Positions 6,984 through 59,718 are shown, counted from the stretch's first letter. The stretch is 64,000 nucleotides of DNA from an uncultured Candidatus Saccharibacteria bacterium (GCA_964532205.1 CAZHGQ010000005.1:1520-65519); one strand, 5' to 3'. Numbers and translations are program-made. Notes: generated by a model not told the origin, from the sequence alone.

Positions 6984-7026
6984 TAGGATCAAGATATATC
7001 AAAGCTGATATTGTTATAAAGAGAAA

Positions 7027-7061
7027 CCGGCAAGGTAGGCGACCTACCTTGCCGGTTTTTT
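7027..7061 (+). terminator. rho-independent terminator after map
   Basis: A 13-bp stem CCGGCAAGGTAGG/CCTACCTTGCCGG is followed by T6. Confidence 0.8.
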
Positions 7062-7179
7062 GCTACTATATCCAATCTGATATAAAGTTCGATGTTTGCC
7101 AGAACAGTCTCATACTTAGAGTATTTTCTATTGGCAATTTCATTTCGACTACCGCTCTTTAAAGCAATAAATTATAAAT

Positions 7180-7284
7180 ATATCGATTTGGATATAATGA
7201 CCAAAATCAGAAAAGTCGTGTGTCCGGACTTTATTTGAAAACACCTTTTTATATCAACAAAGATACCTATATCAAATTTGATAT
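7180..7284. promoter_or_regulatory. two ATATC-N6-GATAT palindromic operator-like sites upstream of the 7370 gene
   Basis: ATATCGATTTGGATAT at 7180-7195 and ATATCAAATTTGATAT at 7269-7284 (within the 20-bp perfect palindrome 7267-7286). A half-site ATATCAACAAAGATAC lies at 7251-7266. A -10 box TATAAT at 7356-7361 sits 8 nt before the ATG, so the mRNA may be leaderless. Confidence 0.55.
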
Positions 7285-7369
7285 AGTCAGCGCTCTGGAC
7301 AGGCTTACTAATTGTTTAATACAAATTATCCCTACGAACAGACATAGTACTGTTGTATAATGGCTCTAT

Positions 7370-10135
7370 ATGGAGCACGTGGCTTCGCATGCTGAACATT
7401 CTTTTACCAACCCTGATGAGGAGTTGGCCTATTTACGTGAACAGGTTGCTGTCCGGGAGCGCGAATTAGCCGCTCGTGGTGCGGAGGTTGTGAAGGATCA
7501 TGTCGTCTCTGACACGATTAAGGATTATAGTTATCGGCCAACAGGCAAAACACTTGATGCTGGCTTTGCTGAAAAGAAAACCGTTCTGGCTGAATTGGCT
7601 TTGAACTTGGCACCTGAGGCCCACGACACAAAAATTTCTGAACTAGCAGCAATGCTCACGGAAAAGGGTTTTAAAAATACCTTGGCAGTAGTGGAGGCCA
7701 TGAAAGATCCACATGTAGCCGATGACTTCCATCGTTTTTTGGTGCAGTTTGTGAAGAAGGGTCATGAAGTGCCGGGTCTGCCAATGAAGTCGGAAGTCTT
7801 TAGTGAACTTTCCATGACGCTGTATGAAGTTTCATTGCCGGCTGGTTCTGAGGCCGATAAACAAAAAGGTTTAAAGGAATTGGTTTCGGCCATGGAGCAG
7901 TTTTATGCCGGTATGTTGTCTTTGGGATCAGATAAGAGCGGTCGTTACTTTAGCTTGGAGATTGCCAACCCAAATCATAGCTCAGAATTTATCATTTATG
8001 TTTCCGTACCTGATGAGAAAAAAGATTTGTTCGAGAAGCAAATTCTTTCACTCTTTAGTAATGCCAAGATCAAAGAAGTTCCCGATGACTACAATATTTT
8101 TCATGAGGGTGGCACAACTGTTGGGGCGGTAGCACACTTGAAGAAACATCCGATTTTTCCAGTTAAAACATATGAGCAATTTGATCACGATCCATTTAAT
8201 GTTTTGGTCAATACATTTTCTAAGATCAAAAAAGATGGTGAGGGTGCAGCCGTGCAAGTGGTCTTTAGACCAAGTCAGCATGATTATTTAGACGAGTACA
8301 AAGTTAGTCTCAAAAAGATAAAGGAAGGGGAGTCGGTCGGTAAAGCCTTGCCAAAAACATTGACCAAAGAAATTCTTTCAAGCTTCGGTGAGTTTATTGT
8401 TGGCGTTAAAAAGAAAAAAGACGAAGAGAAAGACAAACCAAAGGTTATTGATGAAGCGGTCGTTAAGAATATTGAACATAAGATTTCGTCTCAGATTGCT
8501 GAGGTCAATATCCGTATTTTGGCTTCGGCGCCGGATGCTGGCGATGCTAACCGTATTCTCGACGACATTGCCTCAAGCTTCCATCAATTTGAAAACACAT
8601 CTGGCAATGGCATTGAATTCAAGCGACTTTCGGGTAGCAAGCTGGCAGCACTTGATCACGATTTTTCATATCGAGCCTTTACTAAAAGTGATTTGCTACC
8701 ATTATCATTTAAAGAATTAACCACCATCTTCCATTTTCCTGGCGCGACGGTAACGTCGTCACCTCAGCTCAAGCAGGCCAAGGCGGGTTCAGCTGCAGCG
8801 CCGCTCGATCTACCACAAGAGGGCACACTGCTTGGCGTGAACCGATTCCGCAACATTGAGACTAAAGTCTTTATGACCAAAGAAGATCGCTTGCGCCACT
8901 TCTACACAATAGGTCAGACCGGTACAGGTAAATCGACGCTGCTCAAAAATATGATCGCTCAGGACATCCTGCAGGGTGAGGGTGTATGCATGATCGATCC
9001 GCACGGCGTCGATATCTTGGATATTTTGGCTATGATCCCGAAAGAGCGTTACGAAGATGTGATTTACTTTGATCCGAGTTATACTGCCCGACCAATGGGT
9101 CTTAATATGCTCGAATATGATGCTCGCTATCCGGAGCAGAAGACATTCGTGGTTAACGAAATGCTCTCAATTTTCAATAAGTTGTTTGATATGAAGGTGG
9201 CTGGAGGGCCGATGTTTGAACAATATTTCCGAAATGCTGTGTTGCTGGCGATTGATGATCCGAATGATGGCGCGACATTGCTCGATATTTCCAAGATTTT
9301 GGCTAATAAGCCGTACCGCGAGCAGAAGTTGGCTAAATGTACCAATCCGATCGTGGTGCAGTTTTGGAAAGAAGTGGCCGACAAAGCCGGTGGTGAAGCG
9401 TCATTAGCCAACATCGTGCCGTACATCACCTCAAAGTTCGATGTCTTTTTGTCGAACGATATTATGCGACCAATTATTGCTCAGGAAAAATCCTCATTCA
9501 ATTTCCGCGAAGTCATGGATAATAAAAAGATTTTGCTGGTCAATTTGGCCAAGGGTCGTCTCGGAGATCTCAATGCCAACCTGATTGGTCTGATTTTGGT
9601 GGGTAAAATTTTGATGGCCGCGCTTTCGCGTGCTGACTCGATCGGCCAGGATTTACCACCGTTCTATTTGTATATTGATGAGTTCCAGAATGTCACTACA
9701 GATTCAATTGCCACAATTCTTTCCGAAGCACGTAAGTATAAATTGTCACTCAATGTGGCTCACCAATTTATCGCTCAGCTTGAAGAAAAGATTCGCGATG
9801 CGGTGTTTGGAAACGTAGGTTCATTGGCAGTCTTTAGGGTAGGGGCCGATGATGCTGAATACTTGGAAAAACAATTTTCACCTGTCTTTACTGCCAATGA
9901 CATAATTAATATTGAAAATCGTAATGCCTATGTGAAGATGCTCGTGCATGGGCGGCCGGCGGTGCCATTTAATATTGAGACATTGCCACCGCCGGCCGGC
10001 AAGAAAGAACACCTCGAGAAACTCAAAGAACTTTCATATTTAAAATTTGGTAAAGCGCGTTCACAGATTGAGTCGGTGATACATTCTAAATACAAAAAAG
10101 AGCCGCCAGTTGCTCCATTGACAAATACTAAATAA
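7370..10135 (+). CDS. 921-aa soluble P-loop NTPase; the C-terminal half is an FtsK/HerA / type-IV-coupling-protein (TraG/TraD/VirD4, AAA_10-like) ATPase; the N-terminal ~450 aa are unassigned
   Basis: Walker A is TIGQTGTGKSTLL and Walker B is FYLYIDEFQN. The downstream R-K-x5-L-x3-AHQ-x3-QL motif (RKYKLSLNVAHQFIAQL) is typical of conjugative VirD4/VirB4-type ATPases. No N-terminal TM helices are present. Confidence 0.6.
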   Translation: MEHVASHAEHSFTNPDEELAYLREQVAVRERELAARGAEVVKDHVVSDTIKDYSYRPTGKTLDAGFAEKKTVLAELALNLAPEAHDTKISELAAMLTEKGFKNTLAVVEAMKDPHVADDFHRFLVQFVKKGHEVPGLPMKSEVFSELSMTLYEVSLPAGSEADKQKGLKELVSAMEQFYAGMLSLGSDKSGRYFSLEIANPNHSSEFIIYVSVPDEKKDLFEKQILSLFSNAKIKEVPDDYNIFHEGGTTVGAVAHLKKHPIFPVKTYEQFDHDPFNVLVNTFSKIKKDGEGAAVQVVFRPSQHDYLDEYKVSLKKIKEGESVGKALPKTLTKEILSSFGEFIVGVKKKKDEEKDKPKVIDEAVVKNIEHKISSQIAEVNIRILASAPDAGDANRILDDIASSFHQFENTSGNGIEFKRLSGSKLAALDHDFSYRAFTKSDLLPLSFKELTTIFHFPGATVTSSPQLKQAKAGSAAAPLDLPQEGTLLGVNRFRNIETKVFMTKEDRLRHFYTIGQTGTGKSTLLKNMIAQDILQGEGVCMIDPHGVDILDILAMIPKERYEDVIYFDPSYTARPMGLNMLEYDARYPEQKTFVVNEMLSIFNKLFDMKVAGGPMFEQYFRNAVLLAIDDPNDGATLLDISKILANKPYREQKLAKCTNPIVVQFWKEVADKAGGEASLANIVPYITSKFDVFLSNDIMRPIIAQEKSSFNFREVMDNKKILLVNLAKGRLGDLNANLIGLILVGKILMAALSRADSIGQDLPPFYLYIDEFQNVTTDSIATILSEARKYKLSLNVAHQFIAQLEEKIRDAVFGNVGSLAVFRVGADDAEYLEKQFSPVFTANDIINIENRNAYVKMLVHGRPAVPFNIETLPPPAGKKEHLEKLKELSYLKFGKARSQIESVIHSKYKKEPPVAPLTNTK

Positions 10136-10174: not shown

Positions 10175-10942
10175 GTGAAAAATCTGCTTGTTTGCTTGAT
10201 TTGTACCCTGCTTTGCAGCCAGGTATTGGCCGAGCAGAATGGAAACTTCCTGCTGGACTGCACGAAAACAAAGTCGGTCAGCGTTTCCACGGTGTACCGA
10301 TCCCAATATGTGCTTTCAAGTGGGGTTGTTTGCAAAGATGAAGGCGTCGTGCAAGCCGACCTCTTTGTTCAAATGAAGTCTGGTTTGACACTTGATTTGT
10401 GGGCTTCAGCGCCCATCGATGTCTCAGACTTCAACAAGGACTTCGGCACTGAACTCGACGGCACTGTTGGGTATACCAACAAGTTCGGCGACTATTGCAC
10501 CAGCTTTGGTCTGTCATTTTATGATATGAAAAAGGTTGGTACATTGTCCGGATCGGATTTGTTCTGCGCATACCTGGAAGTCTCCCGGGATTTCCTGGTA
10601 CGGCCGGATATCACCATCACGCCTTATCTGCGGTTGGAACTTGATTTCACCACAGATGGCACAGTCGGCAGCGATTTGTTGCCACAACTCGGTTCACGAG
10701 TGGCGTGGCACGCAAATGATCGTTTGACTGTGGTTGGCAAAGGCTATCTTCTCTATGATCCAGGTATGTTCGGTGCTGACACCGCGCTTATCGGGGGTGT
10801 TGAGGGGAAGCTGTGCTGGAAGCTCGCTGAACACGTATCGCTCGAGCTACCGTATCTGCGGGTTGTCGCGCCCTTGACTGATGTCTCAGACAATCGGGAT
10901 ACCGAGTTTGTCTGGGGCATAGGACTAACGTTTAGTTTCTAG
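10175..10942 (+). CDS. secreted beta-rich protein with an outer-membrane-protein-like C-terminus (ends ...VWGIGLTFSF)
   Basis: GTG start with RBS AAAGGAG and a signal peptide MKNLLVCLICTLLCSQVLA. The C-terminal aromatic Phe matches the beta-barrel OMP signature. The gene looks noticeably GC-richer than its flanks. Confidence 0.45.
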   Translation: MKNLLVCLICTLLCSQVLAEQNGNFLLDCTKTKSVSVSTVYRSQYVLSSGVVCKDEGVVQADLFVQMKSGLTLDLWASAPIDVSDFNKDFGTELDGTVGYTNKFGDYCTSFGLSFYDMKKVGTLSGSDLFCAYLEVSRDFLVRPDITITPYLRLELDFTTDGTVGSDLLPQLGSRVAWHANDRLTVVGKGYLLYDPGMFGADTALIGGVEGKLCWKLAEHVSLELPYLRVVAPLTDVSDNRDTEFVWGIGLTFSF

Positions 10943-22237: not shown

Positions 22238-22300
22238 ATTGCCTCCTTTAAAAGATAAAATCCTGGGCTATAGTAGCGCGTTTGATATACTTAGTCCAGT

Positions 22301-31107: not shown

Positions 31108-31204
31108 TCTGTCATTTTTTCCACACGGTTTCGTCTATAGCGTATATGATATACTACTTGAGTAAAAATTATAAATTGTAGTATATCGATTAAATCAAAA
31201 TTCT

Positions 31205-31300
31205 ATGGAGGCAGAACAAAACACCCAAGCTTCAGTCAAACAACCATTTGTTTGTCCAACCGATCCGGCAGAATTAGCTCAGTGCGACAGCTGTCAGTAG
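31205..31300 (+). CDS. 31-aa Cys-containing micro-protein with its own promoter-like A/T box and terminator
   Basis: MEAEQNTQASVKQPFVCPTDPAELAQCDSCQ* is not in the ORF track. A strong terminator starts 5 nt after the stop. Confidence 0.4.
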   Translation: MEAEQNTQASVKQPFVCPTDPAELAQCDSCQ

Positions 31301-31304
31301 AAAA

Positions 31305-31328
31305 GGCCACCCCCACGGGTGGTTTTTT
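31305..31328 (+). terminator. rho-independent terminator
   Basis: GGCCACCC CCAC GGGTGG followed by T6. Confidence 0.8.
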
Positions 31329-31432
31329 GTTGCTCTTGAAAAGGATTAATATGTGTGGTATTCTCACCGCCAGATATTGGTTTTAACTGTTGTGCGACAG
31401 TGAGCCAATAAACTGTTTGCTACGGAGGTAGT

Positions 31433-57682: not shown

Positions 57683-58558
57683 ATGAATAAAGAGCAGATC
57701 GAAGCGCGTATCGCGGAAATTGAAGCGGCTATGAATGCGGCTGATTTTTGGTCTGACAAAAATGCGGCTCAGGCTATGATTCGTGAACTGCAGGATTTAA
57801 AAGTGGCACGTGAGGGTGGTGGCAAATATGACAAAGGTGGGGCGGTCATCACAATTTTTTCCGGTGCTGGCGGTGATGATGCTGAAGATTTTTCTTCGAT
57901 TTTGTTTAGCATGTATCGCAAGTATATTGAAAGCCGCGGCTGGTCGTGGGCCATTGTGCATCAGAATGAAAATGATCATGGCGGCTATCGTAACCTAACA
58001 TTTGAAGTTGATGGCAAGGGTGTGTACGGTGATTTAAAGAATGAGTCAGGCGTGCATCGCTTGGTCCGCATTTCACCGTTTAATGCCAAGCAGCTTCGCC
58101 ACACTTCATTTTCTATGGTGGAAGTCATTCCGAAATTTGAAAAGATGGAGGAGATTGAGATTAAACCCGATGACATTGTGGTGGAATTTGCTAAAGCTGG
58201 CGGCCCGGGCGGGCAGAATGTAAATAAGCGTGAGACGGCGGTGCGTATCGTCCATAAGCCGACAAATTTGTCGGTGCATGTAACATCTGAACGTTCGCAG
58301 GCTCAGAATAAAGAAAAAGGCTTGCAAATTTTGAAAGGTAAATTGTTTAAGTTGGCCGAGGAGCAACGCATTGCCAAAGAGAAGGGTATGCAGATTTCGA
58401 AAACCACAGATATTGAATGGGGCAATCAGATTCGCTCGTATGTCTTTCATCCATACAAAATGATTAAGGATCACCGTACTGATGTGGAGGTGCGTGATAT
58501 CGACAAAGTGCTCGATGGTGGTCTCGATGACTTTATCGCCGCCGAAAAAAGTCTCTAA
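57683..58558 (+). CDS. prfB: peptide chain release factor 2 (short N-terminus, no programmed frameshift seen)
   Basis: SPF tripeptide (RISPFNAKQLRHTSFS) and GGQ (AGGPGGQNVNK) motifs; 291 aa in one continuous frame. Confidence 0.85.
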   Translation: MNKEQIEARIAEIEAAMNAADFWSDKNAAQAMIRELQDLKVAREGGGKYDKGGAVITIFSGAGGDDAEDFSSILFSMYRKYIESRGWSWAIVHQNENDHGGYRNLTFEVDGKGVYGDLKNESGVHRLVRISPFNAKQLRHTSFSMVEVIPKFEKMEEIEIKPDDIVVEFAKAGGPGGQNVNKRETAVRIVHKPTNLSVHVTSERSQAQNKEKGLQILKGKLFKLAEEQRIAKEKGMQISKTTDIEWGNQIRSYVFHPYKMIKDHRTDVEVRDIDKVLDGGLDDFIAAEKSL

Positions 58559-58628
58559 GTAAAAGAAACCTCTAAGTAAAAATTTCAGAAATTGAGTGTT
58601 CACATAAAAAGCACGAAATCATCAAAAG

Positions 58629-58813
58629 ATATCAATTAAGATATTTTTGTATGCATTTAGCTTGATTTAAAGCCTTATTTTGAGGTTTTTGCTCAGCGGG
58701 GGTAGGCTGACAACTTTTCTTGATTTTGCCACTATATCTATTTTGATATTTGCCACTTGTTATTACCTATAAGAAATATATGCAAAAGGATATTTTTATA
58801 TCACTTTTGATAT
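58629..58813. promoter_or_regulatory. three ATATC-N6-GATAT palindromic sites upstream of the XRE regulator gene, two of them nested in a larger inverted repeat
   Basis: ATATCAATTAAGATAT at 58629-58644, ATATCTATTTTGATAT at 58734-58749, and ATATCACTTTTGATAT at 58798-58813. The outer arms GCCACTATATC (58728-58738) and GATATAGTGGC (58809-58819) are exact reverse complements. Confidence 0.55.
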
Positions 58814-58920
58814 AGTGGCGAAAAACTCAAAAGTAACATGAAAAAGGAAGAGCAAAAGTTATCAATTTTTCTTTACCTGCTTTTCATCAGAATTTTAACG
58901 CTGTGTCTTATACTTTGCCC

Positions 58921-59331
58921 ATGACACACTTTATCAAACAGAAAGATGTTTTTGGTGACCCACTTTCCGATAATGCAACCTTCTCTGAAGCCTGGCACAA
59001 AAAGAATAAGACGTATTATATTCCTGATCATAAGAGTGGTGGTCAAAAGGGCAATGAAGAGCGAAATCGCAAAGACAAGAAGCAAATTCTTCAATGGAAA
59101 TGCCGCCGCGCCGCGCGGCGGCACACTGCATTTCTGATTTTGCACACCCGGCTTGTCAAAAAGCTAACGCAAAAACAACTGGCCGACCTCGTTGGCACAC
59201 AGCAGGGCAATATTGCCAGAATAGAACGTGGGCGGGCGGTACCGTCGTTGGAATTTCTGCTAAAAATGGCGGCGGTGCTGGACACGAAGCTTCTACTGCC
59301 GACATTTGCATTTTTGCGGCCAAAGGCATAA
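58921..59331 (+). CDS. XRE-family (Cro/C1-type HTH) transcriptional regulator; possibly leaderless
   Basis: LTQKQLADLVGTQQGNIARIERGRAVPSLEFLLKMAAVL is an HTH_XRE. The ATG at 58921 lies 8 nt after the -10-like TATACT at 58908-58913. The track ORF starts at a GTG at 58903. Confidence 0.65.
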   Translation: MTHFIKQKDVFGDPLSDNATFSEAWHKKNKTYYIPDHKSGGQKGNEERNRKDKKQILQWKCRRAARRHTAFLILHTRLVKKLTQKQLADLVGTQQGNIARIERGRAVPSLEFLLKMAAVLDTKLLLPTFAFLRPKA

Positions 59332-59415: not shown

Positions 59416-59718
59416 ATGCATATTAACGGTGAACATATTCGTGTGCTCCCACCGTGCGAAAAGCACCTGAAGGATACGCTCAAGCAGTACGATGCCAAGC
59501 TTCAAGAGTGCGAGTCTCTGACGCTGACGAATGACCTAAAGCTCATGCTGTTTGTGCGGCGGGAGCTCATCAGTCGTTTGCTCGACCAGCGCGACCTGGA
59601 AAAAGTTGCTAGTGAACATGCGCTCTGGAACCGGGTCAAGGAAGAAATCACCATGGACCAATTCAAGCCGGTCTTTGATCGGGCCTGGTTCCGGATCCAT
59701 GAGCATGCCACGCCGTAG
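59416..59718 (+). CDS. hypothetical protein (start uncertain; track ORF from 59368)
   Basis: ORF only; it lies downstream of the XRE gene. Confidence 0.3.
   Translation: MHINGEHIRVLPPCEKHLKDTLKQYDAKLQECESLTLTNDLKLMLFVRRELISRLLDQRDLEKVASEHALWNRVKEEITMDQFKPVFDRAWFRIHEHATP

Follow-up and report, generated by a model that had tools for sequence, protein, structure and literature searches.

A family of 18-bp palindromes predicted to be operators of an orphan HigA-like repressor at two intergenic regions of a Candidatus Saccharibacteria genome

We analyzed a stretch of 64,000 nucleotides (nt) from an uncultured Candidatus Saccharibacteria bacterium (GCA_964532205.1 CAZHGQ010000005.1:1520-65519; the whole stretch is termed the window herein, and positions are counted from its first letter), in which two intergenic regions carry several copies of a palindrome. 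Its conserved unit, taken from an extended alignment, is TATATC-N6-GATATA and comprises 18 base pairs (bp). The first region (locus A) contains five sites and lies between the stop codon of map (6983) and the ATG (7370) of a gene for a 921-amino-acid VirD4/TraG-like coupling-protein ATPase with a DUF8128 N-terminal part (7370 to 10135, plus strand; assigned by Pfam, homologues, and synteny). The second region (locus B) contains four sites and lies between the prfB stop codon (58558) and the ATG (58921) of a gene for a 136-amino-acid XRE/HTH_3 protein (58921 to 59331, plus strand; assigned by Pfam, a family alignment, a structural model, and PDB matches). We consider it probable that the palindromes are operators for dimers of this XRE protein, an orphan repressor of the HigA type, and that they cover the promoter of its own gene and extra promoters of the ATPase gene.

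The palindrome core ATATC-N6-GATAT has seven exact matches in the window (starting at 6996, 7068, 7180, 7269, 58629, 58734, and 58798), compared to 0.06 ± 0.24 expected from 100 dinucleotide-preserving shuffles of the window, none of which reached seven. With up to one mismatch, 11 sites were found (1.9 expected); two of the one-mismatch sites (7251 and 58778) are 2 to 4 bp from an exact site and inside the same two intergenic regions, and the other two (31137 and 31433) are outside both. The enrichment is confined to the N6 spacing, with zero or one match for each of the remaining spacings from 0 to 20, and the word counts of the window (64 ATATC and 96 GATAT) give about 0.1 pairs expected per fixed spacing. 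The clustering of the palindromes is real and highly non-random, and the nine sites (seven exact and two weak) are all intergenic and confined to the two regions. A first-pass annotation of the sequence had listed at least five copies, placed only in front of the ATPase and XRE genes, against about 0.1 copies expected by chance. Its chance estimate agrees with the one from our word counts, all seven exact sites lie at the two loci that it named, and the half-site that it saw at 7251 to 7266 is the one-mismatch site next to the exact site at 7269; its judgment that the sites are not random stands, and its count does not, the copies at 6996 and 7068 having been overlooked.

In locus A, operator A1 (TATATCAAAGCTGATATT, 6995 to 7012; strand not applicable), an exact core match of the 18-bp repeat family, follows the map stop codon and precedes a terminator hairpin (7024 to 7061; 16-bp stem, 3-nt loop, and T-run) that ends the secY-adk-map operon and is terminator-like on the minus strand too. 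Operator A2 (7067 to 7084, TATATCCAATCTGATATA) and the −10 box TATAGT (7070 down to 7065) together occupy 7065 to 7084 and form a minus-strand promoter that reads into this hairpin. Two upstream promoters face the ATPase gene on the plus strand: P_A1 (7179 to 7198), in which operator A3 (7179 to 7196, TATATCGATTTGGATATA) overlaps the −10 box TATAAT (7193 to 7198), and P_A2 (7268 to 7287), in which operator A5 (7268 to 7285, TATATCAAATTTGATATA) overlaps the extended −10 element TGATATAGT (7279 to 7287). The weak operator A4 (TATATCAACAAAGATACC, 7250 to 7267; strand not applicable), with one core mismatch, directly abuts A5. Closest to the gene, an operator-free −10 box TATAAT (7356 to 7361, plus strand), predicted to be the ancestral one, is found 8 nt before the ATPase ATG and would give a leaderless mRNA. 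The minus-strand promoter at A2 would start transcripts at about 7058, straight into the bidirectional terminator (7058 to 7014), which would leave an RNA of about 45 nt at most. A weak, subthreshold Rfam match to Chlorobi-RRM (E value of 0.047) over this transcript is probably noise, and the intergenic regions of loci A and B gave no Rfam match to known RNA families above noise.

Locus B is built in the same manner. Operator B1 (GATATCAATTAAGATATT, 58628 to 58645; strand not applicable) follows the prfB stop codon and precedes a weak terminator-like hairpin (58693 to 58710, plus strand). Operator B2 (58733 to 58750, TATATCTATTTTGATATT) with the −10 box TATAGT (58736 down to 58731) forms a minus-strand element (58731 to 58750) that reads towards the hairpin. 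The weak operator B3 (TATATGCAAAAGGATATT, 58777 to 58794; strand not applicable), which has one core mismatch, is 2 bp from operator B4 (58797 to 58814, TATATCACTTTTGATATA); B4 and the extended −10 element TGATATAGT (58808 to 58816) make up a plus-strand element (58797 to 58816) that faces the XRE gene and is likely the autoregulated XRE promoter. A 28-codon hydrophobic open reading frame (ORF; MKKEEQKLSIFLYLLFIRILTLCLILCP, 58838 to 58924, plus strand) begins 24 nt downstream of B4 and ends in a stop codon that overlaps the XRE start codon as ATGA; it is a candidate ORF of uncertain status, and no other small ORF in the spacers was convincing. A possible proximal −10 box, TATACT (58909 to 58914, plus strand), is operator-free and 6 nt before the XRE ATG, again in a leaderless arrangement. 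Both loci can thus be described by one layout, in which the upstream gene is followed by an operator, a hairpin, an operator-covered minus-strand promoter that faces the hairpin, a spacer, a weak and a strong operator over a plus-strand extended −10 element, a further spacer of 70 to 95 nt, and an operator-free −10 box before the ATG.

A listing of the pattern TGnTAnnnT in the intergenic regions of the window gave, as the usual promoter of this genome, an extended −10 element near TGATATAaT without a clear −35 element. This element includes the right half-site, GATAT(A), and five of the palindromes (A2, A3, A5, B2, and B4) run into a full −10 hexamer (GATATAGT or GATATAAT); since the right half-site overlaps the promoter, a dimer occupying the site would stand in the way of RNA polymerase. 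The same overlap allows the palindromes to be read as back-to-back −10 elements (TGATATA on both strands), i.e., bidirectional promoters recognized by RNA polymerase alone or by another protein: the right half-site is identical to the extended −10 consensus TGATATAxT, ATATCA and TGATAT are reverse complements of each other, and five sites do have the full hexamer. We regard this as very unlikely. About a dozen other promoter-like sites of the window carry TGATATAxT and lack the left half ATATC at the N6 distance, which argues that the palindrome is more than a promoter; several palindromes (6996 and 58629) have poor −10 hexamers on both strands; and relatives of the XRE protein carry one palindrome of 6-N6-6 geometry at their own operon, with a base change linked to the DNA-reading helix (see below), which would not be expected of a mere promoter element.

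At least four other genes of the window (22301, 36801, 44677, and 57683) have an extended −10 element 6 to 10 nt before the ATG. The −10 boxes at 22283, 36782, 44662, 57668, 7356, and 58909 all end 6 to 10 nt before an ATG without a Shine-Dalgarno sequence, and this proximity is a sign that many mRNAs of this genome may be leaderless. The −10 box before the ATPase ATG is kept in the two nearest relatives, as TATAAT-N9-ATG in L096 and as TGCTATAAT-N8-ATG in L001. Leaderless starts for the ATPase and XRE genes, with −10 boxes 7 to 8 nt before both ATGs, had been proposed in the first-pass annotation; the boxes are there (TATAAT 8 nt before 7370 and TATACT 6 nt before 58921), and with TATAAT-N8/9-ATG kept in two relatives and at least four similar genes in the window, the proposal is plausible.

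Loci A and B align at a mean column identity of 67%, with long identical runs only at the palindromes and their immediate flanks. Four sites (A2, A3, B2, and B4) are embedded in promoter-operator units of about 42 nt, arranged as one divergent pair at each locus. The units have 12 to 16 of the 24 nt after the palindrome in common (14 to 16 of 24 between the A3 flank and the locus B units), with 6.8 ± 2.3 as the background value. Beyond the palindromes and the approximately 24-nt flanks of these four units, the two loci are only loosely alignable. The inverted pair of about 37 to 42 nt at each locus (70 to 73% complementary), the flank similarity above background, and the insertion at locus A, which other genomes lack (see below), would fit two copies of a nonautonomous element resembling a miniature inverted-repeat transposable element, with inverted repeats of about 40 nt and with the palindromes as transposase or recombinase sites. 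Such an origin is extremely unlikely in our judgment: target-site duplications and a transposase are lacking, the two regions can be aligned only loosely in their interiors, no further copies are present in the 64 kb or in 1.16 Mb of sequence from relatives, A1, A4, A5, and B1 are outside the inverted pairs, and the operator of the XRE family already explains the palindrome.

By its domain and fold, the XRE protein is an XRE/HTH_3 DNA-binding protein. Its residues 80 to 124 match HTH_3 (PF01381) with 43.5 bits (cutoff of 23; E value of 3e-11). In the AlphaFold model, residues 1 to 40 have low confidence, residues 43 to 79 form a long helix, and the predicted local distance difference test (pLDDT) score is >90 over residues 50 to 120; the helix-turn-helix is modeled confidently, with residues 95 to 102 (QGNIARIE) as the recognition helix. 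Foldseek matches of the model to HipB, C.BclI, C.AhdI, ClgR, and 434 Cro, with root mean square deviations of 0.8 to 1.9 Å, identify a five-helix fold of the lambda/434 repressor type. A full HMMER scan showed that residues 68 to 133 are 39 to 59% identical to a subfamily of proteins of about 140 amino acids with the motif GTxQPSIARxExG...LPSLSFL...PxFAFL; a profile search gave 862 matches to this subfamily at E values of ≤1e-8, and those with a named source are all from Patescibacteria. With a family profile that included the window protein, the best match among solved proteins was a HigA antitoxin (6af3_B; E value of 4.5e-12), followed by PlcR and the 434 repressor and Cro. Compared to its family, the window protein is extended at the N terminus by about 40 to 45 residues, which do not resemble those of the relatives, and lacks the C-terminal tail of about 45 amino acids that the relatives have.

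Further evidence that this protein reads the palindrome comes from its relatives. Each relative examined has one 18-bp palindrome with the 6-N6-6 geometry (N7 in L121) just upstream of its own operon, and the generalized pattern ATAnC-N6-GnTAT, where it matches, does so once per locus. Position 5 of the half-site tracks the third residue of the recognition helix. The half-site TATAAC accompanies a PS helix (QPSIAR) in 4/4 loci, L103 and L104/105 (both TATAACAATATTGTTATA), L106/107 (cATAACAATATGGTTATA), and L108/109 (TATAATAATATTGTTATA, with one mismatch). TATATC accompanies an N helix in 6/6 loci (one with N7): QSNISR in L110-114 (P0370; TATATCATATATGATATA) and L116 (TATATCAATATTGATATA), QSNIAR in L115 (cATATCATTATTGATATg) and L117/118 (TATATCATTATTGATATc), QANIAR in L119/120 (gATATCATTATTGATATc), and QPNIAR in L121 (ATATC-N7-GATAT). 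The one SV helix (QSVIAR, L069) goes with TATAGC (TATAGCAATTTTGCTATA). The full palindromes are thus TATAAC-N6-GTTATA for the PS type, TATATC...GATATA for the N type, and TATAGC-N6-GCTATA for the SV type. The window protein has a GN helix (QQGNIARIE) and TATATC half-sites, with a T at position 5 in the nine sites. This covariation of helix and half-site points to the XRE protein as the reader of the window palindrome and supports its nomination as the binder in the first-pass annotation. The N7 spacing in L121 (ATATCAGTATGTGATAT, positions 68 to 84) may be a natural variant or an assembly error in a contig of 1.5 kb.

In all fetched loci of relatives where a toxin gene was called, the XRE gene directly follows it; this gene encodes about 116 amino acids, is degraded in L110-114, and was not called in L119/120. 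Six of the seven aligned toxins match Gp49 (PF05973), a family that we take to belong to the RelE/HigB toxin superfamily. In all but the P0370 loci (89 amino acids), a third gene of about 155 codons follows the XRE gene of the relatives, and seven of its eight aligned products have weak, subthreshold matches to DUF6941. Nine loci (L103, L104, L106, L108, L115, L116, L117, L119, and L121) are three-gene modules of a Gp49 toxin (uncalled in L119), an XRE protein with the C-terminal tail of about 45 amino acids, and the protein of about 155 amino acids, a layout that recalls toxin-antitoxin-chaperone modules. A SecB-like chaperone identity of the third protein was considered and rejected, as its sequence matches neither SecB nor any protein of solved structure. 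One relative of the family adjoins terminase and recombinase genes. In the window, tblastn and six-frame hidden Markov model (HMM) searches detected no homologue or remnant of the toxin or the third gene at locus A, at locus B, or elsewhere in the 64 kb. The 28-codon ORF occupies the slot of the relatives' toxin gene, and its distance of 24 nt from B4 compares with 11 to 42 nt between operator and toxin start in the relatives (where the toxin was called).

HigA systems are thus the closest match among the known systems that we compared. The XRE protein shares with them a homologous HTH_3 domain and, by prediction, a palindromic operator within or beside the core promoter that drives its own operon, and members of its family are encoded directly after a Gp49 toxin gene. 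It differs from them in having no toxin gene or remnant beside it, in the four to five operators per locus instead of one, in the absent C-terminal tail and the additional N-terminal residues, and in its second target, a core VirD4-like ATPase gene. Because an adjacent toxin gene, the defining HigA feature, is missing, the predicted protein is best termed an orphan (toxin-less) HigA-like repressor. A precedent for targets outside the own operon is HigA2 (Rv2021c) of Mycobacterium tuberculosis, which binds ATATCAC-N6-GTGATAT and controls eight loci besides its own (PMC11205783).

The second target, the ATPase, is a P-loop NTPase with TraG/VirD4 signatures and the Walker A motif GQTGTGKS. It passes the Pfam cutoffs for TraG-D_C (PF12696; 26.9, cutoff of 22), DUF87 (PF01935; 25.2, cutoff of 23.2), and T4SS-DNA_transf (PF02534; 22.1, cutoff of 20.1), as expected of the patescibacterial VirD4-like coupling proteins. 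There are 1547 homologues at E values of ≤1e-100, and the strong ones are all from Patescibacteria of the Paceibacteria group. The gene order secY-adk-map-ATPase-ndk-rnj, followed by L20 and IF3, is kept in dozens of Paceibacteria genomes, which marks the ATPase gene as a core syntenic gene. On this evidence, the window comes from the chromosome of a patescibacterium of the Paceibacteria group. VirD4-like coupling-protein homologues are common in Patescibacteria and mostly distant from virB4, and the study that reported this describes no regulator of their genes (PMC12102498). The window ATPase differs from other coupling proteins in that it follows the ribosomal secY-adk-map cluster and in that here only is it preceded by an operator array.

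In the two nearest relatives, L096 (ATPase 82% identical) and L001 (68%), just 15 to 21 bp separate the map stop from the ATPase start. The window has approximately 360 bp more (6984 to about 7345), and this extra stretch holds the strong terminator (7024 to 7061) and all five palindromes. The first-pass annotation had read the palindrome as a regulon operator. Among 80 ATPase loci of relatives (1.16 Mb), we found only two matches to ATATC-N6-GATAT, neither tied to the region upstream of the ATPase gene and one of them intragenic, and no repeated palindromes of any sequence upstream of the ATPase gene; a conserved regulatory motif of this gene was therefore rejected. Since the relatives have no array in front of the ATPase gene, the array is lineage-specific, and by comparison with these genomes, the stretch of about 360 bp that carries the ATPase-side sites is a lineage-specific insertion. 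In L001-L045, the map-ATPase junction can be as short as 15 bp or hold more than 2 kb of inserted sequence, and it appears to be an insertion hotspot at the end of the ribosomal-protein operon.

A history of insertion invites the reading that the XRE protein binds at both loci while the ATPase-side array is only a relic or passenger of a decayed toxin-antitoxin or mobile cassette, with no real effect on the ATPase gene. The absence of the stretch from the closest relatives, the variable junction across the clade, the operator-free state of the conserved promoter at 7356 to 7361, and the mobile toxin-antitoxin type of the XRE family, with one member beside terminase and recombinase genes, would all fit a relic. 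We nevertheless hold it to be unlikely. Locus A has kept four perfect palindromes and one weak palindrome amid sequence that is otherwise only loosely alignable, which points to selection on the sites; two of these palindromes coincide in part with good −10 boxes oriented towards the ATPase gene; and the six-frame HMM searches detected no remnants of a toxin gene or third gene.

If the palindromes are operators, regulation might work as follows. Each half-site would be read by the recognition helix (residues 95 to 102) of one subunit, with the half-sites 11 bp apart and on one face of the DNA, and binding of a dimer would keep RNA polymerase off the −10 boxes that the sites overlap. At locus B, B4 together with the weak B3 would cover the promoter that reads through the 28-codon ORF into the XRE gene, giving negative autoregulation; B3, at 20 bp centre to centre from B4, would probably be bound cooperatively with it. 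At locus A, the terminator brought in by the insertion would cut read-through from the ribosomal-protein operon, and the ATPase gene would be faced by two operator-covered promoters (one with A3, the other with A4 and A5), next to a divergent one (A2) and a distal operator (A1). The ATPase gene presumably keeps its ancestral, operator-free leaderless promoter, so control by the XRE protein would concern additional, leadered transcription above a basal level. A1, B1, and the divergent A2 and B2 may serve looping or a higher-order assembly, or they may be by-products of the duplication of an inverted unit. One possible inducing signal is proteolysis via the disordered N terminus, by analogy with antitoxins.

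The first-pass annotation had the XRE protein both autoregulate and repress the ATPase gene. Autoregulation is supported by the overlap of B4 (58797 to 58814) with the extended −10 element TGATATAGT of the predicted promoter towards the XRE gene. For the ATPase gene, the claim is consistent with the two upstream promoters, for which we infer repression, and fails for the leaderless promoter, which no operator overlaps.

Several points weigh against this interpretation. The leaderless −10 boxes of the ATPase and XRE genes begin 71 and 95 bp, respectively, downstream of the nearest operator; the promoter that is conserved in the relatives is thus left uncovered, making an effect on ATPase output uncertain. 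Two of the sites, A1 and B1, have an odd location for operators, between a stop codon and a terminator or hairpin. The relatives have one operator per operon, and arrays of four to five sites are without precedent in the family. A word search of 5.8 billion proteins returned the window protein itself and no close orthologue of it, and the covariation therefore rests on paralogous members of the family, sampled at 11 independent loci, a set that is small and not phylogenetically independent. A scan of metagenomes with the XRE protein likewise gave only distant matches limited to the helix-turn-helix.

The nine sites also invite comparison with phage switches. The phage 434 repressor and Cro share their fold with the XRE protein, and helix 3 of 434, which we take to be TQQSIEQLENG, is similar to TQQGNIARIERG of the window protein. 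The 434 operators OR and OL resemble the window sites in having short half-sites around a 6-bp noncontacted centre and in being adjacent operators of graded quality over promoters. This trait of cI/Cro-type switches, at least three graded operators over promoters, is found at both loci (five sites at A and four at B, each with a one-mismatch site 2 to 4 bp from a perfect one). Unlike 434, the window has no prophage, no divergent repressor/cro pair, and no lysis-lysogeny genes, and housekeeping genes flank the loci on both sides. The analogy to cI/Cro-like switches drawn in the first-pass annotation is contradicted by this setting: there is no divergent cro-like gene, the upstream neighbours are the co-directional prfB and map, ftsE, ftsX, and pyrG are found downstream, and the divergent promoters face hairpins only. 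Between cI/Cro proteins and antitoxins, the XRE protein groups with the antitoxins. The controller proteins C.BclI, C.AhdI, and C.Esp1396I are among the best structural matches and are small XRE dimers that act on two to three adjacent palindromic operators over a promoter, with graded autoregulation, and in this they resemble the multioperator arrangement of the window. They differ in context, as no restriction or methylase genes are nearby and the neighbourhood of the window family consists of toxin-antitoxin modules.

How the present arrangement arose is a more tentative matter. We see a possible, though less than even, case that a toxin-antitoxin repressor that had lost its toxin was domesticated, that duplication and insertion of a cassette of about 40 nt spread its control to the ATPase gene, and that an S, N, or V residue in the recognition helix specifies an A, T, or G base in the operator. 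If so, the second target would be the core secretion-system coupling ATPase of an ultrasmall episymbiotic bacterium, and the rule of one residue and one base could provide orthogonal repressor-operator pairs for the genetics of Patescibacteria. The arrangement suggests that a toxin-antitoxin regulator can be reused for a host-interaction gene, here that of a VirD4-like ATPase, by means of a short inserted stretch of DNA. As a principle, this is already known, since antitoxins of the HigA and MqsA types have targets beyond their own operon. To our knowledge, almost nothing has been described about gene regulation in Patescibacteria, for which the analysis offers a concrete candidate repressor-operator pair, a promoter model (extended −10 element TGATATAaT, often leaderless), and a putative family-wide rule that links one recognition-helix residue to one operator base.

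The genes around locus B are co-directional prfB upstream and ftsE, ftsX, and pyrG downstream. Directly after the XRE gene, an ORF of 100 codons (59416 to 59718, plus strand; 116 amino acids from a TTG start) may be co-transcribed with it. Its product has no family match and is unrelated to the third gene of the relatives, and a single-sequence model of it is all-helical at low confidence (pLDDT of 62). The prfB ORF (57683 to 58558) encodes just 291 amino acids, with its start 6 nt downstream of a −10 box, and its match to the PCRF domain begins only at profile position 95. Release factor 2 genes usually contain a programmed frameshift, and the N-terminal part of this prfB may be absent or, as in such genes, in another frame.

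Downstream of locus A, between the ATPase gene and ndk, a protein of 255 amino acids is encoded (10175 to 10942, plus strand) that has a signal peptide, is beta-rich, and ends in a C terminus like that of outer membrane proteins (...GIGLTFSF), which is odd in a presumed single-membrane patescibacterium. It has no Pfam, NCBIfam, or PHROG family match. A gene of equal length and position is present in the closest relative, L096 (12808 to 13575), and no match was found in L001.

At 31147, a strong extended −10 element (TGATATACT) is followed by a 31-codon ORF that contains cysteine (31206 to 31299, MEAEQNTQASVKQPFVCPTDPAELAQCDSCQ) and by a clear terminator-like hairpin with a T-run; the region from 31147 to 31330 is predicted to be an unannotated small peptide gene. 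Its promoter is accompanied by the one-mismatch palindrome at 31137 (ATAGCGTATATGATAT), which is probably there by chance.

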